A DNA stretch of 64,000 nucleotides from Narcine bancroftii (Eukaryota), in contig NC_091473.1 of the NCBI RefSeq assembly GCF_036971445.1, positions 210,862,001 to 210,926,000 of the forward strand, read 5' to 3'. Under the pieces are notes generated by a model. It was not told the origin of the DNA, did no database searches, and saw nothing but the letters and a program-made list of their open reading frames with translations. Positions 6,117 to 46,109 of the stretch are shown one piece after another; the first letter of the stretch is position 1, and each line of letters starts with the position of its first letter. Both the position numbers and the translations under genes were made by a program.

Positions 6117-6154
<38 letters not shown>

Positions 6155-10200: not shown

Positions 10201-10338
10201 CAAACAAAAAAAACAAAACAAAACAAAAAAAGGTATTAATTAAGTATTAATTATTAATCCAAAAATTTTTATTATATAAAAATATATATTAAAAAAACAA
10301 AAACAAAAAGAACTTAAATGAAAATAATTAATTCAAAC

Positions 10339-12491: not shown

Positions 12492-12495
12492 GTGG

Positions 12496-12505
12496 CAAGA
12501 TGGCG
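12496..12505 (+). promoter_or_regulatory. YY1-type motif at the L1 5' end
   Basis: CAAGATGGCG right at the start of the 5'UTR, as in mammalian L1 internal promoters. Confidence 0.7.
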
Positions 12506-12623
12506 TAAGGATCAGACGTGCCTTCCAGTCCTCTCCTGACTCTATCTTATTGTTTTGTCTAGAAATGCCTGTTAAAATTCTTTAAAAGTTTAGATAATTT
12601 CAGTGCTGTTAATTTAACTTCGG

Positions 12624-14074
12624 ATGGTACAATTGGTGAGAAAGAGCAAAAAAACAACAACAACAGATCATCAAAAAACTACATTTTCCAAAAGTTCAAG
12701 TTTTGGAGCCTACCTACAGAAAAAACATCGGGTCTCAGCCTGAAATGGATCCCAGGAGAGAGGTACAGCTTTCGGATCTAGAGTTTAATGTTACATCGGT
12801 AGAGTCCCCTAAAGAGGGCGCCAAACAGTCTTTAGAACAAAGAGTTACTCAGGTTCGCACAAGTGCAGTAGCATCTGACGGCAATGTTATGAATGAACCA
12901 CGTGTAGTAACATCAGTTGAAGTACCGGCTGGGGAAAGGCATTTGTCAACTGTAGCGGTGGCACTGCAAACTGCACCTTTTGAGATAAAAGAACCTATAC
13001 AACTTGATAACCGGGAGAAATTAATACATTATGGACTGGGGAAAATCCCGGCCAGCGTCCTCCAGTCACTGCTGGAAAGGCTGTGGCTGGGGTTTCCACA
13101 TGCAGTTATACTACAAGGAAGGCAACTAGAATGAAGGAAGCAACAGAAGACCCTTTGGTTATGCAGAAGAAGCAGGAATCTGTTGAGCCAGAATTTCTTC
13201 CAATTGAAAAGATTCTTGTGAATCTTGAATCTAAATTATCTTATACAATGCAGGGATTATCTAAGATTATGACTGAACTTGGTACTAGGTTCAATACTCT
13301 GATGGAAATAAATTCTCAACAGATGGCTGAGTTTGGAGCTTTTAAGCTTGAAGTGAGAGATAAATTTAATTCGTGTGAAGAAGATATAGACAAAATACGA
13401 GATCAAGTTTCAGATGTGACCAAAATGGTCGAAGACTTACAAATTCAAAATAAAAATTTGGTGAAAAAGATTGATTATTTGGAAAACCAATCCAGACAGA
13501 ACAATTTAAAGATTATTGGTTTGCCGGAAGGAATGGAGGGACCAGACCCAAGAAAATTTTTTACTGAATGGATTCCGCAGGTGCTGGGTCAAGAACATTT
13601 CCCGGAAAGTATAATACTGGAACGTGCTCAGGTCAAAGTCCAAGACCTGTTTTGGTTCGTTGCTTGAATTATTACGACAGAGAAATAATTTTACGAGTGG
13701 CTATTAGAAATGCACAACAGAGAAAATCACCCTTGATGATTCAAAATAATCAAGTTTTCTTCTATGCGGATTTGAGTCAAGAAGTTATGTTCCAATGACG
13801 GGAATTCAACCCTGCTAAAGAGTTGTTGTGGAAGAAAGGTTATAAGGCAACCTTTAGATATCCAGCTGTTTTGAAGGTTTTTCAAGATGGTTACCAACCA
13901 AAGTTCTTTGATTCTCCAAAGGAAGCTATAGCATTTGCTCAAGAGCTACCAATCACTCAGTTTCAACAGAGACATAGTCCGCCGCGATCTCCAAGGAGAC
14001 AAGAGATGAAAGAAAAGAGCTGTGCTCCAAGAAGGAATGGTCGTAACGGTGACGCGGCTGTTGGAGCTGATTAA
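12624..14074 (+). pseudogene. L1 ORF1, frameshifted
   Basis: Coiled coil, ENQSRQNNLKIIGLPEG, PRPVLVRCL and FYADLS split over several frames. The start position is approximate. Confidence 0.88.
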
Positions 14075-14482
14075 AAGAAAAGTTGTTCTTTTTTTTTCTA
14101 ATGCTTTGTTTTAAAAAAAAAGGGATATTAAATCATGATGATGTTAGTTTAAGATGAAGTGAGAGTTGGGGGAGAGAACTGGTAGGCACTATTTTCTGAA
14201 AGTCATCTGCTACGTGTGAGTTATCTCACACCCATTTTTTTTGGGAGTTACCGCATTGCGTGGTTTAGACGGGAAGGGGTATTTTTAACCTCCTACCCAT
14301 TTTTTTCTTTTTTTTTCTATTATTAGATTAAAGAGTGAAGGGGGGGTTTTTGTTTATAAAAAAAAATTTAAAAAAAATTTTTTTCTCTCTTTTCCTTTTT
14401 TTCTCTTCTTTCTTTTTTTTATTGTATTAAGAGAGGGTAAGGGGGTAAGAGTTTGGGTTTTTTTTCCTAATTGTTGTAAGAC

Positions 14483-16140
14483 ATGTCGAAATTTAAATTT
14501 GCTTCTCTTAATGTTCAGGGTTTGAATAATCCTATAAAGCGTAAGAAAGTACTTGCTTATTTAAAAAAAATTAAAGTAGATGTGGCCTTTTTACAGGAAA
14601 CTCATTTGACAGATAAAGAACACTTGAAACTTAAGCGGGGCTGGGTTGGACAAGTCTTCTATTCTTCATTTAATTCAAAAGCAAAAGGAGTTGCGGTTTT
14701 GCTACATAAGAATTTACCGTTTCAATTGCAAGATGAGGAGAAAAATGGAGGAAGGCTACTTAAGTTGAATTGTATGATTTCTAATGAAGCCTGGACTTTG
14801 ATTGATGTTTATGTTCCAAATGTTGAAGATACTGCTTTTATTACAGAAATATCTTTATTATTGGGACAAGCTAATTCCAATGTGATGATTGGGGGGATTT
14901 AAATATGGTATAGAACTGTTATTGGATAAGTATCCAAAGGTAATTAATAAATCTAAGATGGTGATACATATGGCTAATATGATGAAAGATTTGAATTTAG
15001 TTGCTATTTGGTGTAGATTTAACCCTACACAGAAAGACTTTTCTTTTTATTCTTCTCGACATAATTCTTTCTCAAGACTTGATTATTTTTTAATTTCGGC
15101 ACATTTACAGGATAAGGTTATATCTGTGGATTATAAGGCGAGGTTAGTTTCGGATCATTCATTGTTATTATTGGAATATCAAAGTTCTCAAGTTACACAA
15201 CATACTTTAAGATGGAGATTTAATGCTATGTTATTACAAAAGCCAGAATTTATTGTTTATTTGAGAAAACAAATTGAGGATTTCATTGCTAATAATGTTC
15301 ACTTTGTTTCTGATCAGTTTGTTTTGTGGGACACAATGAAAGCTTTTTTACGAGGTCAAATTATCAGTTATGCATCTAAACTGAAGAAAGAGAGAGTTAG
15401 AGAAATTGAGGATTTGGAGAAGAAAATAACAATCTGTGAAAAAGAATTTCAAAAGAAAGTTACTGAATTCCAAAAGATCCAAATAACTAATTTAAAGTTG
15501 AAGTATAATAAGTTACAGTTATATCGATTTGAATGTTTGTTGAATCATTCAAAAAATAAATTTTATGAATGGGGTGAGAAAGCTCATAAAGTATTAGCTT
15601 GGCAGTTAAAAAAAGAACAGTTATCTAGGATTATACCAGCTATTAGAAATAAATCGGGTATTACTTTTAGTCAAAAAGAAATTAATGATGAATTTTGTAA
15701 TTTTTACAAAAAACTTTATTTGACTGAATGTAAAGAGATAAAAGAAGATGCAATAGACTCTTTTTTGAAAAATATTAATTTACCACAGTTATCTCAAGAA
15801 GATAGACAAGAGTTAGATAAACCTTTTACAGATAGTGAAATTGAAATGGCTATAAAAGATATGCCAAATGGAAAAGCGCCTGGTGGAGATGGCTTTTCTA
15901 TTGAGTTTTATAAGACTTTTTATGTTGATATATCTTCTTTATTTAAGATGTAATACAACAATTTTATGATACTTTTCAATTACCTGAGTCTTGTTCTAAT
16001 GCTATAATTACAGTTATACCAAAAAAAGATAAAGATCCTTTACAGGTAGCTTCTTATCGTCCTATATCTTTGTTAAATGTAGATTATAAAATAGTGGCTA
16101 AAGTTATGGCTAATAGGTTGGCTCAGTATTTACCGAAGAT
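14483..16140 (+). pseudogene. L1 ORF2 N-terminal half (APE endonuclease to RT start), frameshifted
   Basis: SLNVQGLN, LQETH, SRLDY, SDH, KAPGGDG, YRPISLLNVDYKI. Confidence 0.93.
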
Positions 16141-16974
16141 ACACCTTGAAATGGAATTCCACTGTGAGGCCCAGGGAAAGCAGTTGTCAAATACGACACT
16201 CTGAAATTGACAAATTAGTGACAACCTGTCTTGCTCGAGAAGTTTTAATAAGTCTTTGCATCTACGAGATAAACCAAGAAATCATAGCATCCTGGTTCCA
16301 TAATAATTAATCTTCTAAATTGTAGAATGGTATGTTCAGTTTTGATTTTGACTGACAAATGTTAGAAGGAGTAGGCGCATGATTAATTGTTTTTGGGGTA
16401 TATAAGCCTGTGGTCCTGCTGCTAAAATTTAGACTCTCCAAGGGGTGGGAACACCGCTTCTCAAGAAGGAAGAACAGCCAGAGTCCGAGCAACGTCCCAG
16501 TCGGGGGAGGTGAAGAAGCTGCTACCGGCACCCCGGCAACCTACTACAAGTGTGCTGTCATTGCCTCGCTTTGGCAGTTGGGAGCAGTCCAGGCGTTGTT
16601 AAGTATGATTAGTGAGGGCTTGCATATTGTAGTTTGAAATCTGCTTAAGATTTTGTAATAAAGATTTGTGTAAACTGAAGTGCTCTTGGTGTGTGTCTCT
16701 GTTTTCTTTCAGTCGCTCAAAAGCTCATCAAAGTGCTACAACACATCCAGAAGTATAAGTTAAACAGGGAAGAATGTCAGTTTGGTGCGAAGGAAATCAT
16801 CTGTCTGGGAGACAAACTGTCAGAGGCAGGTGTAGAGCCAGACATGAGCAAAGTGAAAGCAATTCTAGAAATGCATGGACCCACTGTCAAAAAAGGCATA
16901 TTGAGAGTGCTGGGAATGATCAATTTCATTGGTAAATTCAATTAAAATCTGTCTTTCAAAACAATGTTCCTATG

Positions 16975-17397
16975 GACTACAGCCATCAATGCATGGTTGG
17001 CTGGTGCAATATAATCTTTGCGCAAGCTGTACCTGATGCCACAAAAATTGAACAGTTCTAAACCTGAACCATCAGACCAATGTTTTAGATGTGGCATTGC
17101 AACAGGGATTTTGTGCACACAACTAGATCTTTATGTATTTCAGCCGGGGAAAGGTACCCTTTGTTGTGAGTGTCTTGGTCATTGTAAGTATAATTAGTTT
17201 AGCGTTAGGTGTTTAATGTCAGGGGGGAATGAGTGGTGTGGAAGGGAATAAAAACAAAACAGTCAAACTCAATGATAGGACTATAAGGAATTAACAGATA
17301 TGAAATGTAATTAATGTGGATATTGTTGATTATGATATTGATGATATTGATAAATGTTGGAGTTTGTGTGGAAAAATTACAAATAAAATATTCAAAA
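16975..17397 (+). mobile_element. L1 3'-end fragment of another subfamily
   Basis: KLYLMPQKL...DQCFRCG, then a 3'UTR ending AATAAAATATTCAAAA. Confidence 0.65.
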
Positions 17398-17421
17398 TGT
17401 CCCCAATGTACCTGAGGAAGT

Positions 17422-18019
17422 TGTGAGAAATGAGTAAAGCTAATATGAAAATATAAAAGACGAAGAAAGCTAGTATGGATATATGTGTAATGAATAAAGC
17501 CAGTATGAATAGGATAAGGATAGATAATAGAATGTAGGAAGTAAAGTTAGTCTGAATAAGATAAGGGTCTTCTAGCCTATTAGACAAGAATCAGCAAGTT
17601 CCACATATGTAATTAGTAAGCCTTAGACAGAATTAGCAAGTTCTGCATATAAGAGTTAGTAAGCCCTGAGGGGTGAGAAGGTGTGAATAAGGACAAAAGG
17701 CAGGTTTGTCAATAAGGACAATAAGGACAATGACATGATGGGACATAGACAGGATACCCCCTGGTCCTCCAAGTTCACAGAAACAGCACTTAGCAGACAG
17801 GATTGCCTAATGCCAAACTCATCCAGGAGGCAGAAGAATGTAAGGGGGAGGGTACTTCTATACTGAAATAAACTGTATAAAAGTTGGGTGAGCTCCAGTG
17901 TGTGTGTGTATTCCCAGGGTAAGGGGAAGCACCCAACTTTGCATTGTTGTATAATAAATGTTCTTTGTTCTCAATTTTTGTCTTGAGCAATTTCTGTGAA
18001 GGTACTTCTGTTTCTCATA
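17422..18019 (+). mobile_element. ERV LTR of the same family as 24976-25498, opposite orientation
   Basis: TGTGAGA...TCTCATA ends, TATAAAA near 17876 and AATAAA near 17953. Reverse-complement match to the proviral LTR. Confidence 0.93.
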
Positions 18020-18518
18020 ACTTATTTCAAGTGGAACATTAGACAGCCAGTCCTCTTCCCTTGCATAAACCACAAGGGCTTTGACCAGGTTGAACTAAGC
18101 AGTCACAACCCATCTTCCAAATGGGGTTTTACTACAAGCTTTCCATCTTGTCCTGTTCCAGTCCAGCTCCTGCTGCTGACTGTCACACTGCGGAACTAAA
18201 TGCTGTCACTCTCTCTCTCTCTCTCTCTCAGAGAAAAAGTGTGTGTTTTTCTCTCTGCTTGCAAAACCACATGACCCTGTTAGCAAGTTCCACTCCAGAC
18301 AGCTTGTGGCTCCAATGAGTCCTTTCATCTGTTGCCTTTTTTGTAAATAACAATCTATTATTAACACTCTCCAAAGCTTTTGCAAAGGCTATTGAAGCCA
18401 GACTGTCTTGCATGAGCAGAGCTTCAGTACTTTAAATACGACCTGTTTTAAAGAATGTGACCTACACTAAAAAACCTGCCCCAATTTATCTCCCAAAACA
18501 TATCTATAATCTGGCACA
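18020..18518 (-). mobile_element. Partial LTR, family X
   Basis: Homologous to 37948-38481 and ends ATAATCTGGCACA. Confidence 0.75.
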
Positions 18519-18774
18519 AAGTACACCACCAAATTGGGGAAACCGCACCATGTATTCTATCTTGACACTCTCAGACCAGACAGCATTAATGACTTCCTTG
18601 AACCATCTCCCCTGGTCATTCTCTATCCTAATCCCTCCATCTCCTTTCCTCCCACTCCACTTGCGTGTTGCCAAATGCAGTCTTCGGAAGGGTCCTGACC
18701 CATCTTGCGCCAATTGAATGGGGCGACGATTCAGCCCGTCTAACCACGCAATCACTTGGCCCCCCCAAATTGCT

Positions 18775-19545
18775 GACACCCTTTGAGCAAGTCACAGTAC
18801 TGCTCTGTCTGAGTAGAAGCCCATTGACAGCATTCAGCTTATCTCTGATGTTGCAGTATGGCTGGCATTCACCTCTAGCCCATTCTTCAATCAGATCCTT
18901 AACGAGCTTCTGTAGAACTGTGTTCTTTTCTGTTTCATCTGTGATCTCCTTGGATTTCATGTCAGGTACGGGAAGAGATTCAGTGATCAGGTTCACATGG
19001 AGATTCACATCTGTCTCTGTGGAACTCTCATTGTGTGCTTCACTCTGTATCATTGCCCTGGATATTACATCAGCCAGCACAATAAGTTTACTCCTGTGTA
19101 CACCAGTTCAAAGTCATAATGTTGTAGCTTCATCATCCATCTTTGGATTCTCAGTGACATTTCACTGAGATATTTCTTGATTATTTCTACTATTGGCTTG
19201 TGGTCTGTCTCTGCCATGAATGTTGGTAGAGCATACACATAACTGTGAAATTTCTTGAGTGCATAGACCAGATCTAGACTCTCTCTTTCTCAATCTGTGT
19301 ATATCGACAGTCAGATATGGTCATCGATCTTGTTGCATATTCTACTGGCCTCTGATCTTCCCCCACGGCCTGCAGTAGTACCGCACCTATTCCATCTTTT
19401 GAAGCATCTGTGGAAATTTTTGTCTTTCTGGATGCGTCAAAGAACATCAGAAGTTCTGGTCTGTAGATAGAATGAACTTCAGTCATCCCCTTTCTTCTTC
19501 ATGGTTGTCTGTGCACTTGAATTCACATTTGTCCTGTAACAACTT
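18775..19545 (-). mobile_element. Inverted continuation of Gypsy copy B (RT end, RNase H)
   Basis: KLLQDKCEFK continues MYLRK from 17406-17421. Also TDASKDGIGAVLLQ, YTQIEKE and ADVISRA. Confidence 0.88.
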
Positions 19546-19697
19546 TGTGAAGGTACCTCTGTTTCTCACAAAATTGGGAACCAACAAGTAAACAAAACAG
19601 AAAATGGTAAAAACAACATTACAGCACTTTTTCCCGGCGTAGTGTAACTTTCAGATCAGAAGGATGAAGGACTGCACGCCAGGTGGAGGGTAGATTA

Positions 19698-22600
19698 TCA
19701 ATGTTGTTCAGCAGCTCGTTTAATTCGTTGGATGTGGCTCCATCCCTTTTCTTTCGTTCGCACGGCAGTGTCTGTAATCAAAAGTACACAATAGGTTTTA
19801 GTTAGTGATCTTGCCATGCTTTTACATATATCCAATCATCAGGTTTAATAGAATGAATAGGATACTCCAGGGGTGAGATTTGAGCTAATAAACTCTTCTG
19901 TCGTAAGTCATACAGAGAAGTAGAAAGTCCCTGTAGATATTTAGATATGTACTGGTCATTAGCCTCAGGGATAGGGGTATCAGTGTGGAATCCCATGTAA
20001 GGAAGACCAAACATCATTTCATATGGTGAGACAGCAAGGTCCTTATGAGGAGCTGTGTGAGTCCTAATTAAAGCTAAGGGTAAGCATTTAATCCAGGAGA
20101 GGCCAGTTTCCTCATGAAGTCGAGTGAGCTGATTTTTCAAGGTCTGATTCATTCGTTCAACACAGCCTGAGCTCTGGGCGTGCCATGGGGTATGGAGCTG
20201 CCAATCTATTACCAGTATTTTACACACACCCTGGAGTACCTGAGAGGTAAAATGTGTACCTCGATCTGAGTCAATAGTTTGAATCATACCGTATCGTGGA
20301 ATCACAGACTCCAGTAGTATCCTAATAACGGTCCTGGCACGATCATTAGGGGTCGGGAAAGCCTCAACCCATCGTGTGAAATGATCTACTGTGTAAACCC
20401 CTATCTTAGGTAATTCCGTAAAATCAATTTGTATCCATTGAAATGGGCATACAGCTATATCGCGACCACCAGGCATTACCTGGCACATAACCCCGCGTAC
20501 TCTGCTTGGCTATAGTGTATATTCCCGAGCAATGCAAAGACCGTACAAAAGTATCCACAAGTGCCTGTGTTCCCCAGCGTGTCTGCTGGTGGAGCTGATC
20601 AATAATTTGCCGAGCCAAGGCTTTGTTCAGCACTTGGCGTCTTTCTGCCGTCCACCACAACTCATCAACAGTTTGACGCATTCCCTGGTCCTTCATGTAA
20701 ACCTCCTCTTCCCATGAAAAGATGGCAGTCTTTTTAACCTCAAGTGGGGTGGGCAGTAACAGCTGCATGTCTATTTTCTCCGTGAGCACAGCCTGTTTAG
20801 CAGCTGCATCTGCCTGTCTGTTCCCCTGTGCTTCAGGACTGTCACCACTTTGATGGCTTCGTACATGAACTACAGCTATTTCCTCAGGTAATGTAAGAGC
20901 ATCTAGAGATTGGACAATTAAGTTTTCATGGATCAACTTTTGTCCTTTCCCAGTTATCATTCCCTGCTCTTTCCAGATCTTCCCAAAGGTGTGCACTACA
21001 GCAAAAGCGTTCTTTGAGTCTGTGTAGATCGTGCCCACCTTGTTCTCTAGACCCTGGAGAGCTCTACGGAGGGCATACAATTCACAAGATTGTGCTGACC
21101 AATGACCGGGAAGGCGACTGGCTTTAATCACTACTCCTTCCTTCCCATCCACTACACTATACCCGCTATAGCGAGTGCCATCAATGCAATGGGAAGATCC
21201 ATCAATAAACCACCTTTCACCCTCCTGTAAAGGCTCATCGCTTAAATCCTCTCTAATTTTGGTCTGTAAATCTATTACCTCTAAATATACATGCTCTAAA
21301 TCATTTGGAGAAACCAAGAAAGCTGCTGGATTGTGTTCTTTATTCGTAATCAGGGTCAAATCATCCCTATCCATTAGGATCGCTTCATATTTTAAAATTC
21401 TAAGCCACCTTCCAGCACGTTGTAAGAGAATATTGCTGACTGTGTGAGGGGTGTGAACTATCACCGGGGCACCAAACGTAATCTTTCATCCTTCCTCAAC
21501 TAAAATAGCAGTGGCTACGATGGCTTGCACACATTCTGGCCAACCACGACAAACAGGGTCTAAAACTTTTGACAGAAAAGCAACTGGCTGTCTACAGCCT
21601 GCCCTCTCTTGTGTTAGTACTCCGGTGGCCACATCTCCTTTCGCATTGGTATATAGGTCAAATGGCTTATTTAGGTTGGGTAAAGCCAACACTGGGGCAC
21701 TAATAAGGCGCTGTTTCACAAAGTTAAAATCTTTAATCTCTTCCTCTGTCCAGACAACAGCTTCGCCCCCTAGAATCGTGAGTTTATCATAGAGAAATCT
21801 GACCAGGCTAGAATAATTTTCAATCCAGATTCGGCAGTATTCCACTAAACCAAGGAATTTCCTAAGTTCTTTGGCATTCTTGGGAGGGGGGATCTGTAGA
21901 ATACCATGCATTCTCTCTCAACTTATTTTCCTAGTTCCCTGACTTACCAGATGACCTAAGTTTTTAACTTCTGATTGAACAAATTGCAATTTGGATTTGC
22001 TCACCCTGAGACCCTTATTCTCCAGAAAATTCAAAAGTTCAACAATATACTGTTTAACTAATTCGTACGTTTTTCCCGTAATTGACAAATCATCAACATA
22101 TTGTATCAACAGACAATTCTCTCTCCGAGGAGCCTCATCTAATATTTGTTCTAAGACCTGGCCGAATAAATTTGGTGATTATGTAAAGCCCTGGGGAAGG
22201 ACCGTCCACCGGTATTGATTCTTGTGTCCAGTAAAAGGATTTTCCCATTCAAAGGGAAACATGTCTCTGCTCTCTGTTGCTAACGGACAGGTCCAGAAAG
22301 CATCTTTGAGGTCAATCACACTAAACCATTTACTATGGGGATCAATTTTACTCATTATTGTATAGGGATTAGATACAACTGGGTGACAGGTGAGAATAAT
22401 TTTGTTCAGCTCCCTCAAATCCTGCACTAATCGATAGGTACTGTCTGGTTTTTGGACAGGTAAAATTGGGGTATTAAAAGGTGACATACAAGGTTCGAGT
22501 ATACCATCTTTTACCAACTGGTCAATTACTGGCTGCAGCCCCTTTCGGCCAGCTATAGGAATTGGGTACTGCTTTCGTCTAATTATTTGCTCAGGATCTT

Positions 22601-23066
22601 TTAAAGTAACTTGCAGGGGAGGAATATCTAACACTCCTCTTTTGCCTATTTTTGCCCATACTCCAGGATTTATTAGTTCCCGATCCTCCTCGGTTAATAC
22701 ATACAATTGAACCCCAATACCTGATTCCAGTGGCCTGGTGCCGCTGGCCAATTGGTCCTGTAAATCTCAACCTAACAAACAGACTCCAGCTTGGGGAACT
22801 AGTAAAATATCCTCTGTTATTACCTTTTCTCCCATTTGAATTCTTACATCTCTTAATACAGGGACTCTAAAGTCTCTTCCTCCTACTCCTGAAACTATCA
22901 CTGTCCCTTCTATCCTAACACCCTCGGGTGGTTGTAAAATACTAGACCAGGCTGCCCCAAAATCTACTAAAAAGGTCATCTTGTCACTATGGGGTCCTAT
23001 GCTTAAATTTACCAATGGTTCTCCGTGCAGCCCCACGGTGTGTATTGACTGAGAACCGTGACCCCC
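19698..23066 (-). pseudogene. pol: ERV pro-pol (protease, RT, RNase H, integrase), frameshifted
   Basis: FLVDFGA, DLKDAF, LPQGF, YVDD, WFIDGSS, QIDFTELP, DSDRGTHF, ERMN. Confidence 0.93.
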
Positions 23067-24725
23067 CTATTCATAATCTGCTTCCATCAGGGCGTAGAAT
23101 CATGTCTCCCTGGCTCGCATTGGGCATTCTCTCTTAAAATGTCCCTCCTTTTTACAATGGTAGCAAACTAATGCTCCTGTTTCCCAATTCCTACCAGGGT
23201 CTCCATGGGGTCCTGGGAATGGTCGTCATCCCCGGAATTCTCCTCTACCCCTGCCGCTGCTCTGGTCTCTACTTCCCCATTCCTGGCGCTCCTCCCAATG
23301 TCCAGGAGCTGGCACACAGCCCCTACCCTTTCCTTGCTGTCCCTCCATGACTTCCTTGACTGCCTGCATCAAAATCTTAGCCTTTCCTTTCTGTTTTTCC
23401 TCAGACCTCTGGATGTATGCCCTTTGTGCGATCTGTAAAAGCTGTGTTATTCCCTGTTCATGCCAATTCTCAGTCTTCTGCAATTTTCTCCTGATGTCTG
23501 GGGCTGAATTAGTAACGAAGCCCGTTAATACCAATTGTTCACCCGCTGGGGATTCTATATCCAGACCCCCATATTGCTGTATGGCCGTACGCAATCTATT
23601 CAGAAATGCAGAGGAGGTCTCCTCGGGACCTTGGGGAACCTCAAATGCTTTCTTAAAATTCTGTCCCTTTGGAACAGATTCCTCGATTCCTTTTATCAGA
23701 TTAACCCTATATTCCTCCATTAATGTGTGACCATCATTAGTATTCTTATCCCAATTTGGTTTTGCCAGGGGGAATTTAAGTTCCCCAGGTATCGCCTCTG
23801 GTCCCCCTTGGTGTTCCCTATCCCAGACTCTAATCCCTGCCTGGCGAATCATTCCACATTCATCCAAAGTAAACAGAGCCCTAAAAATCGGTGTTAACTC
23901 ATCCCATGTATATATATTTGGTTGAAAAAATTGATCTAATTGTTCGGCACATCCCTGAGGATCCTCTATCAGGGAGGTCATTTCTCTCTTAAAGTTACGC
24001 ACCTCCGTACTAGTCAGGGGCTCATTTACAAAACCGAGACCCTCTCCCACGGGAACTTCCCGTAAAGGTCTCATCCAGTTAATTTCTGGCTTATAATGTC
24101 TAGGTTCCTGCTCTCCGGGAAATAAATCAAAGGGTTCTGCCCTTTCCTCCCGGAAGGTCTCACACTGTTCTGAGTCCAAGTCTCCTCTAGTACTTTGTGA
24201 ACGGGTCATCATACCACCCCTACTTTCTTCTCCTTTCTTTAGCTGTGGGGGAGGAGGGGATGGTGAAGAAGGGTAGAGCATAGGAGAGAGGCGAAAGATA
24301 GGAGCCGGTATAGGAGGAGCATAAGGTGGAGGAAGGGAATGTAACACATCCCATCCTTGTGTTTCAGGGACAAAAGGTTCCTCATCCTTCTTGTCCTTAC
24401 ATTCCTTTTCATTCAAAACCAGTTGATCAACCGATCCACTGAGCCAGCAGGCTGCACATTTTCTGCTCTCAATATTATCTCTTTGGTTTTGATAAAGCCA
24501 GATGTTCAACGCCTGACACATCCAGTCCTCATCGGATCCGAACTTTGGCCAATATACCGAATTCCCTTTTATCAGGTTTTTAACCCATTCCAGACAGCAA
24601 TACCTGACCATGGTCTATTTGTCTTTCCCGCGGATTCTCCCCGCACCCCAATCAGATAGCATTAATCCTAACGGACTTTGCTTAGTTATCTGATCATCCC
24701 GTCCTTCCTTACGACTATCTCCCAT
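23067..24725 (-). pseudogene. gag: ERV gag, frameshifted
   Basis: MG...SPLGLML start, PPPY late domain, capsid MHR-like QGPEETSSAFLNRL, CYHCKKEGHFKREC knuckle, TAG at 23069-23067. Confidence 0.9.
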
Positions 24726-24955
24726 GCCACTCACACCTCCCATACTAACAGGTAAATAAAATTCCTCTTACCGTGATCCAGTAGCTATTCCTAGCGCACT
24801 TCCTTAACGTCCTCCCGTCGTTTGTTCTCAATGCCTCTTCTCGGATATCACTCGCTTCATCCACTGACCAGTCACTCACCATCCATGAGTCCAGCTGAAT
24901 CAGCCGGGGTGCACCTACCCTCGTCGTCGGGCACTCTGTCAGTGGAGGGAGTGGG

Positions 24956-24973
24956 ATCCCGGATGAGTCCCCA
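24956..24973 (-). promoter_or_regulatory. Primer-binding site, tRNA-Pro
   Basis: TGGGGACTCATCCGGGAT matches canonical TGGGGGCTCGTCCGGGAT at 16 of 18 positions, 2 nt after the LTR. Confidence 0.9.
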
Positions 24974-24975
24974 TT

Positions 24976-25498
24976 TGTGAGAAACAGAAGTACCTTCACA
25001 GAAATTGCTCGAGACAAAAATTGAGAACAAAGAACATTTATTATACAACAATGCAAAGTTGGGTGCTTCCCCTTACCCTGGGAATACATACATACACTGG
25101 GGCTCACCCAACTTTTATACAGTTGATTTCAGTATAGAAATACCCTCCCCCTTGCATTCTTCTGCCTCCTGGATGAGTTTGGCATTAGGCAATCCTGTCT
25201 GCCTACGTGCTGTTTCTGTGAACTTAGAGGACCAGGGAGTATCCTGTCGGTGTCCCATCATGTCATTGTCCTTATTCACACCTTCCCGACTCTCAGGGCT
25301 TACTAACTTCTTATATGCAGAACTTGCTAATTCTGTCTAAAAGGCTAGAAGACCCTTATCTTATTCAGACTAACTTTACTTCCTACATTTTATTATCTAT
25401 CCTTATCCTATTCATACTGGCTTTATTCATTACACATATATCCATACTAGTTTTCTTCATCTTTCATATTTTCATATTAGTTTTACTCATCTCTCACA
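24976..25498 (-). repeat. ERV 5' LTR, 523 bp
   Basis: TGTGAGA...TCTCACA inverted termini, adjacent to the PBS. Confidence 0.93.
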
Positions 25499-25783: not shown

Positions 25784-28700
25784 TGTGATGGTACACTGCA
25801 GTACATCACTTGGACAACAGGTGGATAAGCGACATAGCTTCTGGCCTATTGACACCTGACCCCCAGGTAGGCCCAAAGGGCTCATGGTATAAAGCCAAAG
25901 TCCCAACTGTGCTCTCTCTCTCTCCCCCAGGTTTACTGTAAGCACAGCTAGCAGCCAACTAGATATTTATGTGTGGAATAAAGCTGTGTTGCCCTAAACA
26001 GTATTGTGCCTGTGTTTTCCTTTGACACAGCCTGCCACAATTTATTCCACTCACATAAATATCTACCATATACCCCAGCAACAGGCAGGTTCTCCTAGTG
26101 TCCAATAATCACTCAGTGAAAGTAAAGGGTTACTGTGTGGTGCCAATAGAAATTAAAGGGATGGAGTATAGGGACTTCTGTCTGCTGGTCCTGGAACAGT
26201 TCTGCGTCACGGTGCTGTTGGGATTAGACTTCTAGTGCCAGCTGGAGAGCCTCATGGTAGTCCACAATGGACCACAGCCCCCCTAGTGCTTATGAGGCAA
26301 AAGCATTGTGCACTATTAATCCTTAATATCGAGCCCCATCCCTTATTTACCTACCGCACCCCAGACTAAACCATAGCCATAAATATCAGGAGGTACGGCC
26401 CCAGAGACCGAACTTTTATTAAAATGAAGACACGCCGAATGCTGCAGGAGGGCATCATTGAACCCAGCAGCAGCCCGTGGCGAGCCCAAGTAGTCGTAGC
26501 AAAGACAGGAGAGAAACTATGCTTAGAGGTCGACTACAGCCAGACCATTAATGTTCACACAGCTGGATGCATACCCTCTCCCCTGGATTAGCAAAATGGT
26601 GATTACGATAGCCCAGTATAAGGTCTTCTCCACCACCAACCTCAAGGCTGCATACCACCAGGTGCCTATCAGGAGGATCGTCCGGCCCTATATGGCATTT
26701 GAAGCCAATGGCCGACTCTATCAGTTCCTCCGACTCTCTTTCAGAGTAACTAACAGGGTATCACTGTTCCAGAGGGAAATGGACTGACTGGTGGATGACT
26801 ATAGCCTGGAGGCTATTTTCCCGTACTTGGACAATGTTACCATCTGCGGGCACTCAGTGAACAACCACAACACAAACCTAAAGAGATTCCTGGAGGCAGC
26901 CAAAGAACGCAACCTGACATACAATGAAGACAAGTGTGTGTTCGGAGCTAGGTAGCTGGCTTTGTTGGGTTACGTAGTACAGAACCGGGAGGTGGGACCA
27001 GATCCAGCTTGCATGCAGGCTCTGATGGACTTACCCATCCCCAGTATGCCTAAATCACTCAAAAGATGCCTGAGCTTATTTGCCTATTACACACAGTGGA
27101 TAACCCAGTATGCAGATAGGGCCCAGCCACTGATGAGAGCAAAAGAATTCCCTCTGCCCAGTAAGGCGGTCCAGGCATTTAACAGCCTGCACGACAACTT
27201 GGCACACATCACCATGAGGGCTGTGTGGTGAATGTCTGCCAAGCTGCCTGTCTCTCCCCTCTGGCAAGCCTTGCTGTACTAACATTGGCTGTGCATTATC
27301 TCTACTGATAAGGATACTCCTGTTAAGGACACTGTATATGCATCTATTGTCTTTCATTATAGTACCACGAGTTTCTACTAATAATAGCCATGATTATTTT
27401 TTGACCACATCGTCTTGGTCTACTTCATCAACTGGCACTTCAATTTTATTAGCAGAAATGGATGCAGCCCTCAACCCAGAGAGGCTAATAATCAACCAGT
27501 CTGCCCCGAGGGCCAAAGAAATTTTCAACCACTGGATTGGATTATTTCGATTACCACATGGCTCAAAACAATGTGGTCGATGAGGCGATACAGTAGGGCC
27601 ACCTGAACTCTGCTGAGTGAGGTCCCTTTTGCCATAATGCAAGGAGCTACCACTCCGGCTATAGCTCGGGAATGTCTGACTACTTACTATGCAGCGCCAC
27701 GGATTGTGGTGCTTGCTTGACACCATTTGCTGACTAGACGCCATTTGCTGACTAGACGCCAGAATCCCGGGGAAAGAGGTGCTGCTTAAGGCACTACATT
27801 CTATTCGGTCTTTATTGTGTACTGCAACAAATCAAACACCTCATGAACGTGTTTGCCTTTCCGAGGAAATCAGGAACTGTGATGGACTGGCCAGTCTGTT
27901 TATCTGAGCCTGGAATCGTGCTGCTGAAGGGCCATGCTCGGGCATGTAAAACAGACCACCGAGTCCAACCAGTTCAGCTACTGCATACTAACCCCAACTA
28001 CGCTCATGTTAGATTCCCAGACGGGAGTACTGACCCTGTACCCCTAAGAGATCTGGCCTTGCCTGGTTCGCCCCTTCCTCACAGCCCTACTCAGAGTGAG
28101 CCTGAGAAATTGGACGAACCCCCCCTCCCAGCCTGTGACCCCTAGTCAGCTTTCAGATGACCAAGCTGAGGCTCCACTGCCTCACGCTGGCGATTCTGGA
28201 GCGGGCCCAGAAGCCATTCCTTCCCAGACTACAGACCCAGGAACTGTACCAGTTCCCAAGGTTGCAAAGGAGCCACCTGTTTTGAGACAAAGCACCAGAA
28301 TTCGTAAACAACCTGAGAGGCTGACATATTCATAAAACATCTCATTATATTTCAATTGCTTGCTAGATACTGACATATTTTGGCTATTAGAGTATCTCAA
28401 GGCCAAACATGGTATCCATGTATCGCTTGCTTCAGTCTTTCCTAGCAGCTGTCCTTTTGATTTTAACCCTTCTTCTGCTGGGGAGACTGTGGTGAATGTC
28501 TGCCAAGCTGCCTGTCTCCCCCCTCTGGGGAGCCTTGCTGTACTAACATTGGCTGTGAATTATCTCTACTGTTAAGGACACTCCCCTTGGGTATAACTGT
28601 GTATGCACCAATTGTCATTATTGTACCATGAGTTTCTGCTAATAAAACCCATGATTATTGTTTGACCACATCATCTTTGTCTACTTCATCAACTGGCACT

Positions 28701-30122
28701 TCAGGCTGTAGACGAAACACTCCCCTTCCACCCTGAACCAGGAGGGACGCCCGGTGGCTTTCTTTTCTCAAATGCTGCAGGGCTTAGAAACCATGCACTT
28801 AGCAGTGGAGATAGAGGCCCAGGCCATAGTGGAGGCAGTAAGGCACTGGAAGCACTACCTGGTGGGCAGCCATTTTACACTGGTCACAGACCAACAGTCT
28901 GTAGCTTTCATGTTTGACAACCAGAACAAGGGGAAAATTAAGAATGATAAAATGTTACGTTGGATGATTGAACTGTCTACTTACTCGTATGACATCTGAA
29001 TCCGCCCGCTAAGTTAAATGAACCCCCGGATGCACTGTCCAGGGATGCTTGCATGACCACTCAACACATATCCCAGCTGCAGAACATTCACAGCGAGCTG
29101 GGGCACCCCAGAGTGACCAGGATGTTTCACTTCATTAAGAACGCCAACCTGCCATTCTCGGCAGAAGTGGTAAGGACTACTACAAAGGGTTGTCGTATAT
29201 GTGTGGAATGCAAACCACAGTTCTACCGCCCACCTGAGGCAGACCTTATCAAATCCACCTGGCCATTAGAGCATTTCAGTATTGATTTTAAAGGCCCCCT
29301 CCCGTCCACCAATAACAACTGTTACTTCCTCACTGTGATAGATAAGTTCTCCTGGTTCCCCTTCGCCATCCCCTGCGCAGATGTGTCCACGGCAGCAGTA
29401 ATAATGTGCCTGAAACCCATCTTCATCATGTGTGGATACCCTAACTATATCCACACAGGGGGGGGGGGGGGGGGGGAAAGCCTTCATGAGTGCCGAGCTG
29501 CAGCAATACTTCTGAGAGAGGGGGATTGCTACCAGCCGCACCACAAGCTACAACCCCCAAGGGAATGGGCAAGTAGAGAGGGAGAATGGTACCATTTGGA
29601 AGATGGTCCTTCTGGTATTAAAGTCAAAGGACCTCCCTGGTATCCAGGTGGCAGGAAGTGTTACCCAAGACGTTACACGTGATATGCTTGTTATTGTGTA
29701 CTGCCATAAACATGACCGCACATGACAGAATTTTCTCTTTTACAAAGAAATCGACCCTGAGCTCGGAGATGACACATTGGATGATCTCACTGGGCCCGGT
29801 GCTGATCAAGAAACATGGCCCAGTGCTGATCAAGAAACATGGCACGAGATGGACCCTCTGGTCGAGAAGGGAGAGCTGATCCACGCAAACCAAAACTATG
29901 CATTTGTGACTTTCCCTGTGTGAGCAATACCAGGACGTTTTAAAGGGGGTGAATGTGATGATACACTGTAGTACATCACTCGGCCAACAGGTTGCCTTGA
30001 GACACAGCACCCGATCTAATGACATTCGACCACCAGGTGGGCCCAGAGGGCCCATGGTATAAAGCCTAGGTCTTGACCATGTGCTCGCTCTCTCTCTCTC
30101 CCCCGGGATCTCTGTAAGGACA
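25784..30122 (+). mobile_element. Gypsy element Y, gag-deleted; LTRs 25784-26039 and 29954 to the gap
   Basis: Related LTRs, RT (QLDAYPLP, YLDN), RNase H, integrase (SIDFKGPLP) and PPT AAAGGGGGTGAA. Confidence 0.88.
27224..28703 (+). mobile_element. Internally deleted Gypsy element Z nested in Y; LTRs 27224-27442 and 28488-28703
   Basis: TG...CA LTRs and 5-bp TSD GGCTG (27219-27223, 28704-28708). The gag start MDAALNPERL is joined to an integrase tail. Confidence 0.93.
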
Positions 30123-30322
30123 NNNNNNNNNNNNNNNNNNNNNNNNNNNNNNNNNNNNNNNNNNNNNNNNNNNNNNNNNNNNNNNNNNNNNNNNNNNNNN
30201 NNNNNNNNNNNNNNNNNNNNNNNNNNNNNNNNNNNNNNNNNNNNNNNNNNNNNNNNNNNNNNNNNNNNNNNNNNNNNNNNNNNNNNNNNNNNNNNNNNNN
30301 NNNNNNNNNNNNNNNNNNNNNN
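30123..30322. other. Assembly gap of 200 N
   Basis: Run of N with a round length, so probably a placeholder. Confidence 0.99.
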
Positions 30323-33295: not shown

Positions 33296-33780
33296 GTGAA
33301 GAAGCGTAAGCATGAGAAAATTTTCTTTGAATTGATATGTATCTCTTTAAAGTTTGAGCTTCTTTATATACATTTTATATCTCCATCAATATTCAGTAAA
33401 TACTTTGTTATTCATCGTTATGAAAATTTTAATGCAAAGCTTTGCAAAATGTGTATATTTATCAACAAATTAAAACTACGTAAAGGAAGAGCCACAGAGT
33501 TTGTTCCCGCTTTTTGAATTTGAAATTAGGATTTATTAGAAAAAGGAAAGTGCCATCTATACTGCCCACCTGGTTAAGGGTGGCGGCCAGGGAAAAGTTG
33601 AACACATTGTTTTCCACCTGGAATGGGGTGGATTCAACCATAGCTTGCATTGCAGCCTTGGCAATGTCTGCCTTGATGTGGCTTAAGACCGCACTGGCCT
33701 TTGACTTCAGGGGAAAAGAGGTATATTTGACAAGGGGGCATGCCTTGTCTGGGGACCCACTGGGCATAGTAGAAGTAGCC

Positions 33781-33999
33781 TGTAGCGTGTCGAATGACAC
33801 AAATACTTGTTAGCTCAAACCAAGGATTTAATCAGCAAAAGAATGGAGCATATTACAGCACGGTCGACCAGTCCAGACTGACTTAGGTCTGGCTAGCAGC
33901 AGTCCTTTATGACCTGCCAGTAGGCATGGCTAAAACTCTCAGTCAATCACAACAGCTATAAGCAAATATATATTGGTGATAGTATCCTGAACTGTCACA
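33781..33999 (-). mobile_element. Solo LTR, 219 bp
   Basis: TGT...ACA ends and TSD TAGCC/AAGCC. The host frame KRCRG|FYYAQW rejoins across it. Confidence 0.8.
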
Positions 34000-34141
34000 A
34001 AGCCTCGGCACCTTTTCATAGTTCCAAAAGAGGGCACATGTGGTTGGGATCGGGACCAATGTTTCCATCCTCTGCGATGCAGTCAAGGTTAATGAGGTGG
34101 GTTATGCGAGATACACATTTATCCTTATTGTATGCAAGGTT

Positions 34142-37100
34142 TTTTTTAAAAGACTTTATTTAAAATTTTTATAACATGAATACAATAAAGAATTACATTT
34201 AAAGAAAAATAGAAAAAAAAATTTAAAAAGGTATGATTACAATATTACATCAGGAAACTACACAAAATAATGCCCCCCCGTTATTTGTAACACAATAATA
34301 ACACAAAAACCTCACAAAGATAAGCGTATACAGAGCCGTTGTCATACCCACACTCCTGTTCGGCTCCGAATCATGGGTCCTCTACTGGCATCACCTACGG
34401 CTCCTAGAACGCTTCCACCAGCGTTGTCTCCGCTCCATCCTCAACATTCATTGGAGCGCTTTCATCCCTAACGTCGAAGTACTCGAGATGGCAGAGGTCG
34501 ACAGCATCGAGTCCACGCTGCTGAAGATCCAGCTGCGCTGGGTGGGTCACGTCTCCAGAATGGAGGACCATCGCCTTCCCAAGATCGTGTTATATGGCGA
34601 GCTCTCCACTGGCCACCATGACAGAGGTGCACCAAAGAAAAGGTACAAGGACTGCCTAAAGGAATCTCTTGGTGCCTGCCACATTGACCACCGCCAATGG
34701 GCTGATATCGCCTCAAACCGTGCATCTTGGTGCCTCACAGTTTGGCGGGTAGCAACCTCCTTTGAAGAAGACCGCAGAGCCCACCTCACTGACAAAAGGC
34801 AAAGGGGGAAAAACCCAACACCCAACCAATTTCCCCCTGCAACCGTGTCTGCCTGTCCCGCATCGGACTTGTCAACCACAAACGAGCCTCCAGCTGACGT
34901 GGACATTTACCCCCTCCATAAATTTTCGTCCGCGAAGCCAAGCCAAAGAAGATTAATAGTCTAACTTAAAATTAGTCCAACCCTCCCCCCCAAAATAAAG
35001 ATTGAAGAGTTAATAAAATTGACATTATATAAGAAAAAAAAATACCCACTTACAAAAGAGATAAAACTTAACCTAAAAAAATTCTAACAACAACAAAAAA
35101 AAAATTGTCAATACTAAAATATCACACTTAAACATATATTTAAATCAAACTTAAATGCATATAATTAGCAAACGGAGTCCACTTTAAGTTATAAAAAGAC
35201 ATCTTATCCTGAATTGAAAAAGATATCCTTTCCATAGTCAAACAAAATTTCATTTCCAAATACCACTTATCTAAAGCTAGTATATTTCTATCTTTCCAAA
35301 TAAGTGCTATACATTTCTTAGCCCCAACTAAAGCTAAATAAATAAATGAAATCTGATAATCCTCTAAACCTAAATCGATTAATGATTGCATGTTCCCTAA
35401 TAAAAATATATCGGGATCTAATACAAGATAGATATTATATAAACTGTTAAGAACAGATTGAATACCTTTCCAAAACTGTTGCAATCGATCACAAAGCCAA
35501 ACAGTATGCAAAAAAGTATTGGCCGTCTGATCACATCGAAAACAGGAATCCAACTTTCTAAAACCAAATTTTTTAAATTTTTCTGGCGTTAAATATAGCT
35601 GATGAATAAAATTATAATTAATCATCGCTAGTCTAGCATTAGTTAATTTCCGAATACTATTCTGACAAATTTCCATCCAAGCTTCTTCAGCTATTTTATG
35701 TCCTAAATCTTTTTCCCATTTCAACTTATCTTTATCCTAGTCTTTTTTACTATCAATTTCTTGTAAAATACAATACAAATCAGATATATATCCCTTTTTT
35801 TGGTATTGAAAGTACATATTCTTCAAAACTAGATTCAGGCAATAAAATCATATGTCGACCACATAACTGTTTTACAAAAGATCTTAATTGATAATATACA
35901 AATGTAGAATTTGCACTAATATCATATTTCCTTTGTAATTCGTCAAAGGAACAAAAACAACCCTCAGAAAAACAATCAGATAAATTTTTTATTCCCTTCT
36001 TTTCCCATTGTTTCAAAGTGGCATTGGAGACCGTAAAAGGAACAAGTTGATTATTATATAATGGCAATCTTCCAGAATATATATTTTTAAGTCCCAATTT
36101 TTTAAGTTCACTTGTCCATAAATTCAATAAATGTTTCAATATTGGCACATCATAAGTTTGTAATAAATTTTTCTTCCATCGAAACAAAAACTCATGAGGA
36201 AATTTTTCTAAAATAACCGCCATTTCTATCTTTACCCAACTAGGTGGGTCGTCCATATTCATTAATGCACTAAGAAATTTGAATTGAGCTGCTTCATAAT
36301 AATGCTGAAAATTCAGTAATCTTAAACCTCCAAATTGAAAATCCCACATCAATTTTCTCATTGCTACTCTTGGAAATTTTCCCTTCCATAAGAATTCTCT
36401 AATCGCTTTATATAAATCCTTAAAAAACTTTAAAAAAAAAAGGAATTGATTGAAACAAATATTGTATTCTAGGAAAAATATTCATTTTTATGGCATTAAT
36501 CCTCCCTAGTAAACCCAAAGGTAGACCCCTCCACCTAATCAAATCTAATTTAATCCTTTTTATTAAAGGAAAATAATTAATTGAATATAATTCTTGAAAT
36601 TCCGTATTAACATTAATTCCTAAATATTTAATTTGTGTAGTCCACTTCAAATTTGTAATATTTTTATATACTGAATAATCACCGTTACAAATTGGTAAAA
36701 TTTCACTTTTAGCCCAATTTACTTTGTAACCAGTTAATTGGCCATAAATTTCTAAACGTTCTTGAATTGCAGGTAAAGAAATATCCAGATCCACCAAATA
36801 TAATAAAACATCATCAGCAAATAAATTAATCTTATATTCCTCATTCAGAACTCTCATACCTTTAACATTTTCATTTTGACGTATTAATTGTGCTAAAGGT
36901 TCAATAACTATAGCAAATAAAGCAGGTGACAACGGACATCCTTGTCTAGTAGATCTTGTCAAACTAAAAGATTCTGAAATTTGGCCATTAACACCAATTC
37001 TAGCCTTCGGGCTATTATATAAAGCCTTTATCAACCCAATAAATGAAGAACCAAAACAAAATTTCTCAAGTACTTTGAACAGAAACTTCCATTCCACTCT

Positions 37101-37305
37101 ATCAAAAGCCTTTTCTGCATCCAATGAAACCACTATTGGATAATTCAACTGAAATTTAGATTTATTTATCAAGGTAATTAACTGTAAAATATTATCTGAC
37201 GCATACCTGTTTTTTATAAATCCCGTTTGATCACCATGTATAATTTTAGGCAGATATTGAGCTAATCTATTAGCCATAATTTTAGCTACAATTTTATAAT
37301 CTACA
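34142..37305 (-). mobile_element. 5'-truncated L1 (RT to 3' end)
   Basis: 16-bp TSD TATTGTATGCAAGGTT (34126-34141 and 37306-37321), poly(T), and ORF2 fragments homologous to 10339-12491. Confidence 0.95.
34305..34952 (+). mobile_element. 5'-truncated RTE LINE inserted in the L1 3'UTR
   Basis: QLRWVGHVSRM...RGAPKKRYKD and 3' end GCCAAGCCAAAGAAGA. Confidence 0.9.
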
Positions 37306-37498
37306 TATTGTATGCAAGGTTAAGGAGTTTGGTGGTCTGGAGTAATATATTGAGAGTGGACTCATGATCTTGCAGGTCATGGCTGCAAATGGTGATGTTG
37401 TCTAGATACGGGAATGTGGTCTGCAACTTGTATTGGTCTACCATTCAGTTCATTTCCTGCTGGAAGACTGAGATGCCGTTGGTGACACCAAAGAGAAC

Positions 37499-38481
37499 TG
37501 TTATGGGCCCAGAGGACCCCAAAATCCAGCAGCAATAGATATTCACCAAGACAAATGGTTACTAACAAAAGTTACTTTTAATTTTGTTTAAACATAAAAA
37601 CAGGATCAAACTTTAACCTATTAATATAACCTTAATTAAACCTAACAACCCCTTCTAATTCTAAGAGCACAAGTATGTTCAGAAAAATTATTTGATTCAC
37701 AGTCTAATCTCACTTCTCATTCCTCCAAGTCCACTGGTTGCAGGTAATTCTTATACTGTGCACAGAATTTAACATTTATGAATCTTCACCAGGTTTTGGT
37801 GCTTGAAAGGTAAATGGCTCATTAGACACAAACTGATTCCTTTTGATCAGCCACTTCAGTGTCTTGCTGAAGAAACTTACCCCATTAGGGTTTTCAAGAT
37901 GATAACCTCTTTTTTTCAGGTCACCACAGAGTGCCTTTTCTGTTTCCCTTATCTCAGGCAAAACACCACACAGTCAGCCATCTCCTCTTGTATGGACCAA
38001 AAGGACTTTCAATAGGCTGAAGTCAGAACTCACAACTTGTCTTCCAAAATGGGGTTTCCACAACCCTGCCAGCTTGTCATATTCCACTCCCAGCTGTTGC
38101 TGTTGAACTGTAGAACTGAATTCTATTTCTCTCTATTTCTCTCTCAGAGAAAACCACATGACTATCTTAGAATGGTAAACTGCACTCAGACAGACTGCAG
38201 CACTGGACCCAATCTTCTGAGTCTGTTCGCCTGTTGTTTTCCAAAACAATAATCCATTACTCCACAGCATGTCAAATTAACACCTACTTGTGAAGTCTCT
38301 ACAGGCATCCTTCAAAGTTTTTCCAAAGGTACTTGCAGCTTGGACTGTCTGGCTTAAGCCAAGGTCTGGCATTTTAAATGAGATCTATGTTGTGAAGTAT
38401 TTGTTTGTAAACTACACTAAAAAAAACACAATTTATCTCCCCAAACATATGTATGCAAAAAATATAACATAATCTGTCACA
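37499..38481 (-). mobile_element. Full-length solo LTR, family X (~980 bp)
   Basis: TGTTA...TGTCACA ends. It interrupts Gypsy W RT, with partial copies at 18020 and 25530. Confidence 0.8.
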
Positions 38482-38715
38482 GAGATGGTAGAGGCAGCTA
38501 TCTGCCTCAAAGGCAGTATATTGGCGGTCCTCTGGGCTGGATGTGCAGGGAAAAGGGTACGTGCCCAGCTGTGTATATCTATTAATGGTATGACTGTAGT
38601 CAATGATATAGAAGTTGTATAGAAACTGATAAACATGCTGGCCAACTGTCCTGGACTGAGGTGGGAGCTGCGGCACAGTCAGCAAGGGGCATGTCCAGAC
38701 AAACTAGAAGAAGTC

Positions 38716-46032: not shown

Positions 46033-46073
46033 CAGCTCTTCACTGAGGGATGTGGGTGGCTCTGAGAAGAGCC
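46033..46073 (-). terminator. H1 stem-loop and HDE, copy 2
   Basis: Identical to 633-673. Confidence 0.95.
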
Positions 46074-46109
46074 GTTGGGGTCAGGACTTTACACATTGAG
46101 CTTTTTATT

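Follow-up and report, generated by a model that had tools for sequence, protein, structure and literature searches.

Two Gypsy retrotransposons with dissimilar LTRs, here called Y and Z, lie one inside the other in the stretch of 64,000 nucleotides from Narcine bancroftii that we analysed (the window), and in each of them the leader just past the 5′ LTR can pair with part of that LTR. This raises the question of whether the resulting stem is a genuine feature of these elements and, if so, whether it serves priming of reverse transcription, polyadenylation or translation. An earlier, sequence-only reading of the window had described the stem as conserved in structure without being conserved in sequence, and had proposed from it a clade-wide mechanism linking priming, polyadenylation and possibly translation start.

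Nested elements Y and Z

The features on which the argument depends are these, in order along the window.

25784..26039, + strand: 5′ LTR of Y, 256 bp; TATAAAG at LTR nt 105, AATAAA at nt 194
25960..25982, + strand: LTR arm of Y, with AATAAA at its end
26041..26065, + strand: putative PBS of Y, 10 bp + 2-nt bulge + 13 bp; 1-nt spacer at 26040
26065..29917, + strand: pol remnant of Y (PR, RT, RH, INT) with stops and frameshifts, split by Z at 27224-28708
27219..27223, + strand: left TSD of Z, GGCTG, within the RT/RNase H region of Y
27224..27442, + strand: 5′ LTR of Z, 219 bp, TG...CA, ending CTTCA
27372..27386, + strand: 5′ LTR arm of Z, putative self-primer; pairs with the leader at 13/15, its hexamer now AATAAT through decay
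27443..27443, + strand: spacer of Z, a single unpaired A at the LTR/PBS boundary
27444..27458, + strand: putative non-tRNA PBS of Z, without TGG; complement of the LTR arm
27458..27772, + strand: gag 5′ remnant of Z, start MDAALNPERL, interrupted by stops and frameshifts
near 27722-27761, + strand: short tandem duplication in the gag remnant of Z
27773..28335, + strand: integrase C-terminal remnant of Z
28480..28487, + strand: putative polypurine tract of Z, GGGGAGA + C, so labelled from its position adjoining the 3′ LTR
28488..28703, + strand: 3′ LTR of Z, 216 bp; candidate TATA (TATAACT) at LTR nt 105
28633..28647, + strand: 3′ LTR arm of Z; 15/15 complementary to the PBS, AATAAA at 28641-28646
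28704..28708, + strand: right TSD of Z, GGCTG
29954..30122, + strand: 3′ LTR of Y, cut before the arm by an N gap (30123-30322)

Z (27224-28703) is an internally deleted Gypsy element with Y as its host sequence. Its interior of 1045 bp retains only the disrupted beginning of gag and the C-terminal part of integrase; deletion has taken PR, RT and RH completely and gag for the most part. Y is the older element; its LTRs are identical at 130 of 163 sites, those of Z at 192 of 215 aligned sites, and the LTRs of Y and Z have no real similarity to each other (local scores 19-21). The complementarity first reported for Z was reproduced at the same coordinates, 15/15 with the 3′ LTR arm and 13/15 with the 5′ LTR arm. 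The two mismatches in the 5′ arm fall at 27377 and 27385, the change at 27385 being the one that turns AATAAA into AATAAT, and they are ordinary decay, since the Z LTRs differ at 23 of 215 sites. Shuffling bore out the expectation that the complementarity is commoner than in shuffled LTRs: none of 2000 dinucleotide-shuffled LTRs reached the 15-bp run found with the 3′ LTR, and 7 of 2000 reached the best-of-15 score of 13 found with the 5′ LTR. The longest perfect run between the leader and its own 5′ LTR was 7 bp, which was not significant (170/2000 shuffles), and it is thus the 3′ LTR copy that yields 15/15. Folding of the local 5′ RNA gave z = −1.5 for Z. The gag ATG of Z begins at 27458, the last base of the stem, and the loop is 57 nt long in Z and 58 nt in Y. 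The whole 5′ LTR of Z is without stops in the gag frame (27218-27583, 121 codons from stop to stop), probably by chance.

In Y the stem (25960-25982 with 26041-26065) gave z = −6.05 and proved longer than the sequence-only reading had it, consisting of 10 bp, a 2-nt bulge and 13 bp; the PBS and its own 5′ arm are a 2-nt indel apart. The 3′ arm of Y falls in the N gap. An internal deletion of Y, in which gag was lost, starts just behind the PBS stem and joins the stem to mid-protease, leaving the priming structure intact.

The window itself consists of a 45.4-kb unit and the beginning of a second copy, and positions 1-18600 and 45401-64000 differ by one mismatch in 18.6 kb, old transposon insertions all included. 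The unit contains reading frames for H1, H2B, H2A and H3, a piece of H4 seen on antisense translation and a pair of histone stem-loops, and many transposon remnants share it with the histone genes. The repeat may reflect either a tandem array, very young or homogenised, or a duplication introduced by the assembly. Rfam detected only the histone stem-loops in the window, and ARAGORN no tRNA. Other LTR elements of the window served as controls, namely two partial copies, 93% identical, of a tRNA-type Gypsy element (2550-4241 and 7693-9392; LTR end, TGG PBS and gag-pro) and a degraded ERV on the minus strand (17422-25498; LTRs ~83% identical, 2-nt spacer, TGG-type PBS), to which a solo-LTR-like stretch near 37948-38153 is related. 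In keeping with the earlier claim of tRNA PBSs, each of these controls (the ERV and the two Gypsy copies, at 2680 and 7825) has a TGG-type PBS, with TGG 0-2 nt from the LTR end; their LTR complement is at most 5-6 bp. A third, fragmentary copy of the Y/Z lineage (33564-38616, minus strand) consists of RT/RH pieces interrupted by other repeats, and no 5′ junction is visible in it. The short motif CANTTTAHY was rejected as a detector of such junctions, as it occurred in the window at chance frequency (25 observed, 25.6 expected) and misses Z, which has four Ts.

The stem in related elements and the lineage that carries it

Loci outside the window were picked by pol peptides alone, the stem not being used in the search: genome contigs were scanned with two pol peptide patterns, which gave 10 loci (L001-L010) from 51 candidate stretches. 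All are animal-type LTR retrotransposons, some with satellite-rich flanks, in bacterial MAGs (GTDB species representatives), which points to eukaryotic carry-over or contamination of those records. The 5′ junction is missing in L003, L004, L006, L009 and L010, and these are uninformative on the stem. All five loci with a junction (L001, L002, L005, L007 and L008) have an LTR-leader stem, in which the CA of the LTR is followed by one unpaired base and then by a perfect complement of 13-17 bp to an arm ending TAAA(A). The stem measures 14 bp in L001 (arm ending GATTAAA), 13 bp in L002 (AATAAAA), 14 bp in L005, 17 bp in L007 (GGGTAAA) and 14 bp in L008; in each locus it is the longest inverted repeat in ~490 nt around the junction, and the observed run was reached in 0-2 of 2000 shuffles. 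In L005 and L008 the perfect copy is the 5′ arm, and the 3′ arm deviates. As L001 is stop-free for 1162 codons, and both pieces of L002 are stop-free until the terminal stop, the stem occurs in apparently intact elements. A parallel test used protein read-through: 148 proteins had an intact Gag start, and six of them an extension of at least 10 aa. Two of the six were compatible with a stem, P0095 (0/200 shuffles) and P0039 (5/200 shuffles); P0069, P0063 and P0175 had no significant stem, nor had P0096, in which a junction-like YNLF was recognised only by eye.

Y, Z and the five outside loci make up seven families, a small sample to which one window contributed two. Across these the observed run was attained in 0-2 of 2000 shuffles, with Z scored against its 3′ LTR. 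In 7/7 exactly 1 nt separates the stem from the LTR CA, in agreement with the 1-nt spacer of the sequence-only reading; TGG was found 0-5 nt from the LTR in none of the seven, and no alternative PBS was seen. Perfect runs with the family's own arm were 10-17 bp long, as against 4-9 bp between families (11 bp for the related pair L005/L008). All 70 pairs at the first ten stem positions are Watson-Crick pairs, with no G-U among them. At positions 1-3 the pairs are invariably A-T, and positions 4-13 are highly variable, pairing with the own arm at 69/70 and with the arms of other families at 222/420. The stems end sharply: pairing extended past the perfect stem, which we tried and discarded as a feature, was no better than in shuffled sequence in 6/7 families, Y being the exception. 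The spacer base never pairs with the base behind the arm, which is G in 5/7. The loop ranges from 24 to 60 nt, and the nearly fixed length of ~57 nt seen in Y and Z is not general. From these sequences we conclude that the LTR-leader stem is real and general within the lineage sampled; conservation of structure without sequence extends beyond the window, to all seven junction-bearing families, with many base-pair types per position. Sharp-ended stems free of G-U would be better explained by a DNA-templated copy than by a selected RNA helix, and the covariation of arm and PBS may come from templated copying, not from selection on RNA structure. An R-scape covariation test would not discriminate between the mechanisms.

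Y and Z belong to one lineage of compact, single-ORF, chromodomain-less animal Ty3/Gypsy elements, and in their relatives the ORF codes for one polyprotein of ~1200 aa that begins M(D/E)xxLRPERL. A search with Gag returned 300 proteins at E 1e-10 or better. Among the 120 listed, the named matches came from cnidarians, crustaceans, moths and a snail; tandem CCHC knuckles were present in 114 of these 120 and CHCC in none. The named relatives of highest identity to Y and Z are from rays (Hypanus, Mobula, Hemitrygon). No chromodomain was found among the precomputed domains of the 120 listed proteins, in 6 scanned proteins or in 14 divergent relatives, and a domain scan showed that an RNase H domain is present in the lineage. 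Membership in Ty3/Gypsy is borne out by the TG...CA LTRs, 5-bp TSD and PPT of Z and by the pol order PR-RT-RH-INT of Y, with which full-length relatives agree, Ty3 Gag-Pol being the best relative of solved structure (E 1.8e-71). Wherever a TSD is visible (Z, L005, L008), it measures 5 bp. The RT of Y shares 48-57% identity with the RTs of L001, L002 and L005. In an RT tree (FastTree, 91 of 256 segments, with no named chromovirus RT included) the stem-bearing tips were dispersed in a group of 54 tips, the base and deep nodes of which were without support; the tree is without Z, L007 and L008, whose RT is absent or of insufficient length.

Placement was judged on these features and by description. 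CsRN1 elements have a CHCC Gag, a tRNA-Trp PBS and a 4-bp TSD (PMC2582038, in the portion available), and the LTR start of Z, TGTGGTG, fits the CsRN1 5′ motif TGTGGYG (PMC3601003 Table 3). Membership in CsRN1 was rejected, with CHCC in 0 of the 120 listed proteins, no TGG in 7/7 families and a TSD of 5 bp. Since the knuckles are CCHC and not CHCC, the chromodomain is lacking and the TSD is 5 bp, CsRN1 is excluded and chromovirus membership is argued against; by the features tested, the lineage is not part of Tf1/sushi. No clade name could be attached: the accessible parts of the literature and supplements searched (PMC6238403, PMC8556966, PMC3670739, PMC2774666) held no matching reference sequence, and Atlas gave generic Gag clusters only, with no clade name.

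Priming, polyadenylation and the alternatives

A published rule calls self-priming from a complement of at least 10 bp that starts 0-5 bp after the LTR (PMC6317226, accessible text), and all seven families have 10-17 bp at offset 1, Z by its perfect run with the 3′ LTR copy. As the stem starts 1 nt after the LTR in 7/7 families and replaces a tRNA PBS, priming is its best explanation, and by analogy with Tf1 we think it likely that the lineage primes minus-strand DNA synthesis on itself, with no host tRNA. What is seen is an LTR segment ending TAAA or TAAAA that complements 13-17 nt (~25 in Y) one base past the 5′ LTR. The transcript would start at or upstream of this arm and fold back across a loop of 24-60 nt. 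As in Tf1, the RNase H of the element would then cut just behind the arm and leave a 3′-OH, from which RT would extend through the spacer, U5 and the remaining R. During plus-strand synthesis the retained primer would be copied into the new PBS, and such copying would keep PBS and arm exact complements while the LTR drifts. A plausible side effect, not needed in every family, is that the duplex would hide the 5′ poly(A) signal and leave the 3′ copy free.

The position of the transcript start bears on this scheme. In Y, TATAAAG at LTR nt 105 is retained in both LTRs and the arm starts at nt 177; the conserved TATA suggests that transcription begins ~40 nt upstream of it. In four families (Z, L005, L007, L008) AGTT/Inr-like motifs lie where the arm begins, and these would favour a 5′-end primer like that of Tf1.

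The arm always ends at the position of the poly(A) hexamer, which is AATAAA or AATAAAA in 5/7 families, ATTAAA in L001 and GGTAAA in L007, where it pairs with TTTACC and a 17-bp stem is retained. An invariant AATAAA was therefore discarded, and the stem is not constant at AATAAA/TTTATT as first supposed. With the leader present, the first four bases of the hexamer were predicted to be paired at a probability of at least 0.99, and without it much less or partly (5/5 tested). In L005 a second AATAAA lies free, outside the stem. AATAAA also occurs at LTR nt 7 of L001 (locus 243) and L007 (locus 558), both of which have a non-canonical arm hexamer, and there it may be a distant substitute signal, the LTR start of L007 being tentative. 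The proposed link to polyadenylation thus survives in part, in the constant position and predicted pairing of the hexamer, and is weakened by L007 and L005, from which it is clear that the stem does not serve masking alone. The link to translation start had to be given up as a general trait: in 5/5 outside elements the gag ATG lies 8-21 nt past the last stem base, and its overlap with the stem is peculiar to Z. In L007 a six-codon upstream ORF (782-804) begins directly behind the stem and ends in a TGA that shares bases with the gag ATG.

Occlusion hairpins mask the poly(A) signal in some retroviruses, and a stem that did nothing but mask the signal, with priming by other means, would suit both the six families whose arm ends at AATAAA, AATAAAA or ATTAAA and the predicted pairing of the hexamer. 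It would leave unexplained why L007 retains its long stem around GGTAAA/TTTACC while an AATAAA of L005 lies outside the stem; masking, moreover, needs neither the fixed 1-nt offset nor the absence of G-U, and no other PBS is to be seen. We consider a mask alone quite unlikely. A primer that has the sequence of the arm but is supplied in trans or by the opposite end (as the R copy at the 3′ end of the genomic RNA, a short transcript of the LTR or a TAAA-trimmed small RNA) is unlikely as well, even though the arm is present in both LTRs, the Z leader agrees better with the 3′ copy (15/15 against 13/15), the flanking duplexes of Tf1 were not recovered, and a primer in trans would leave the same templated complement. 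In L005 and L008, however, the perfect copy is the 5′ arm and it is the 3′ arm that differs; as the asymmetry there is the opposite of that in Z, the latter looks like decay. Fold-back over 24-60 nt should also be kinetically favoured, and Tf1 provides a precedent for it.

The short run of Z with its own 5′ LTR, and the degraded and deleted state of both Y and Z, would be compatible with chance complementarity in AT-rich DNA or with a deletion or assembly artefact in these two elements. This reading is refuted by the outside loci, in which five of five independent elements share the geometry at 0-2/2000 shuffles, and by the cross-family runs, which fall below the self runs; its probability is negligible. 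Self-priming on the LTR arm is the reading that we retain, and with it one part of the clade-wide mechanism proposed earlier: priming is the best explanation, given offset 1 in 7/7 families and no TGG, polyadenylation is partially connected with it, and translation start is not.

Comparison with known elements and implications

Published systems are compared here from the available portions of the sources cited. Self-priming is described in them for Tf1/sushi, Tcn1, Tj1 and plant TAR, and GalEa, Skipper and biv-TRIM as PBS-less. Among Gypsy elements it has hitherto been described mainly for the Tf1/sushi chromoviruses, with Tf1/Tf2 of Schizosaccharomyces pombe (PMC7175516, PMC4600332, bioRxiv 2022.12.06.519325). 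In Tf1 the mRNA's initial 11 bases anneal to the PBS and RNase H cleaves between bases 11 and 12 (PMC7175516), and ~50% of the cDNA carries, at its 3′ end, a PBS that has been reverse-transcribed (PMC11042837). As in Tf1/sushi, the PBS of the present lineage lies just past the 5′ LTR and complements an LTR segment, and a tRNA site is absent; because an LTR-complementary PBS is the known signature of Tf1/sushi self-priming, we regard the stem as a variant of a described mechanism. Unlike Tf1/sushi, the lineage has no detected chromodomain and has a Gag with tandem CCHC (114 of the 120 listed). It differs from Tf1 in its 1-nt unpaired spacer, where the Tf1 PBS, in our own reading of PMC11042837, appears to abut the LTR; in a duplex of 13-17 bp and not 11, with the primer end at the poly(A) hexamer; and in the likely transcript start, since the Tf1 primer is the first 11 bases whereas the TATA of Y points upstream of the arm. 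The three-duplex pretzel of Tf1 was not recovered (loop versus post-PBS pairing, Fisher p = 0.76), and loop hairpins were clear in only 2/7 families (Z and L002), mononucleotide shuffles serving as the control.

Plant TAR (Houba/Osr-1) copia and Tcn1 elements are predicted to be self-priming by the LTR-complement rule (PMC6317226), and TAR, like our lineage, places the trait outside the chromoviruses. In contrast, TAR is Ty1/copia and Tcn1 a chromovirus, both are from plants, and no link to poly(A) is mentioned for them in the available text of that paper. Like the non-chromoviral 'Branch 2' Gypsy element Cigr-1, which has two CCHC, no chromodomain, no env, a lost GPY/F and INT after RH (PMC2774666 supplement 3), the lineage has two CCHC and neither chromodomain nor env, traits that are not exclusive to Cigr-1. 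Compared by description, the protease flap is TANG there and MAS(T) here, the match of the regions being inferred. The MolGy clades, with which the lineage was likewise compared by description, are also 'Branch 2'. Mollusc and annelid surveys list many unnamed clades, and their main texts, in the parts available, nowhere mention a PBS. Fungal GalEa, biv-TRIM and Skipper also are without a tRNA PBS (Skipper has a polypyrimidine tract), but the hairpins of GalEa and biv-TRIM are internal where one arm here is inside the LTR, and for GalEa and Skipper the available descriptions gave no LTR complement. In the literature searched, as far as its text was accessible, which also included PMC5006619, PMC6238403, PMC5445492, PMC6934838, PMC5341516, PMC8556966 and PMC3670739, we found neither self-priming for this lineage nor a primer ending at a poly(A) signal; Repbase and GyDB lay outside the scope of the search.

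We propose, as a tentative and somewhat doubtful extension, that tRNA-free priming arose separately from Tf1/sushi in a non-chromoviral lineage found in cnidarians, arthropods, molluscs and rays, with the poly(A) signal as primer tip. If this is true, one LTR segment would end the RNA in the 3′ LTR; in the 5′ LTR it would be masked by the leader and, once cleaved at a TAAA^G-type site, would serve as the primer, and copying of the primer would match lock and key automatically. Masking by the leader would also offer an LTR element a compact means of escaping polyadenylation in its 5′ LTR.

For annotation, the rule of CA, 1 nt and TTT, complementary to the LTR, sets the 5′ LTR end to the base, and tools that require a tRNA PBS will overlook or downgrade elements of the lineage. 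Fragments of tRNA reportedly silence LTR elements by targeting the PBS, and elements without a tRNA PBS should evade such silencing. A second, broad animal lineage with self-priming would mean more than one origin of this mode of priming, or its persistence. It would also bear on whether hairpin priming came before tRNA priming in evolution, an order put forward as speculation in the accessible part of PMC3601003.
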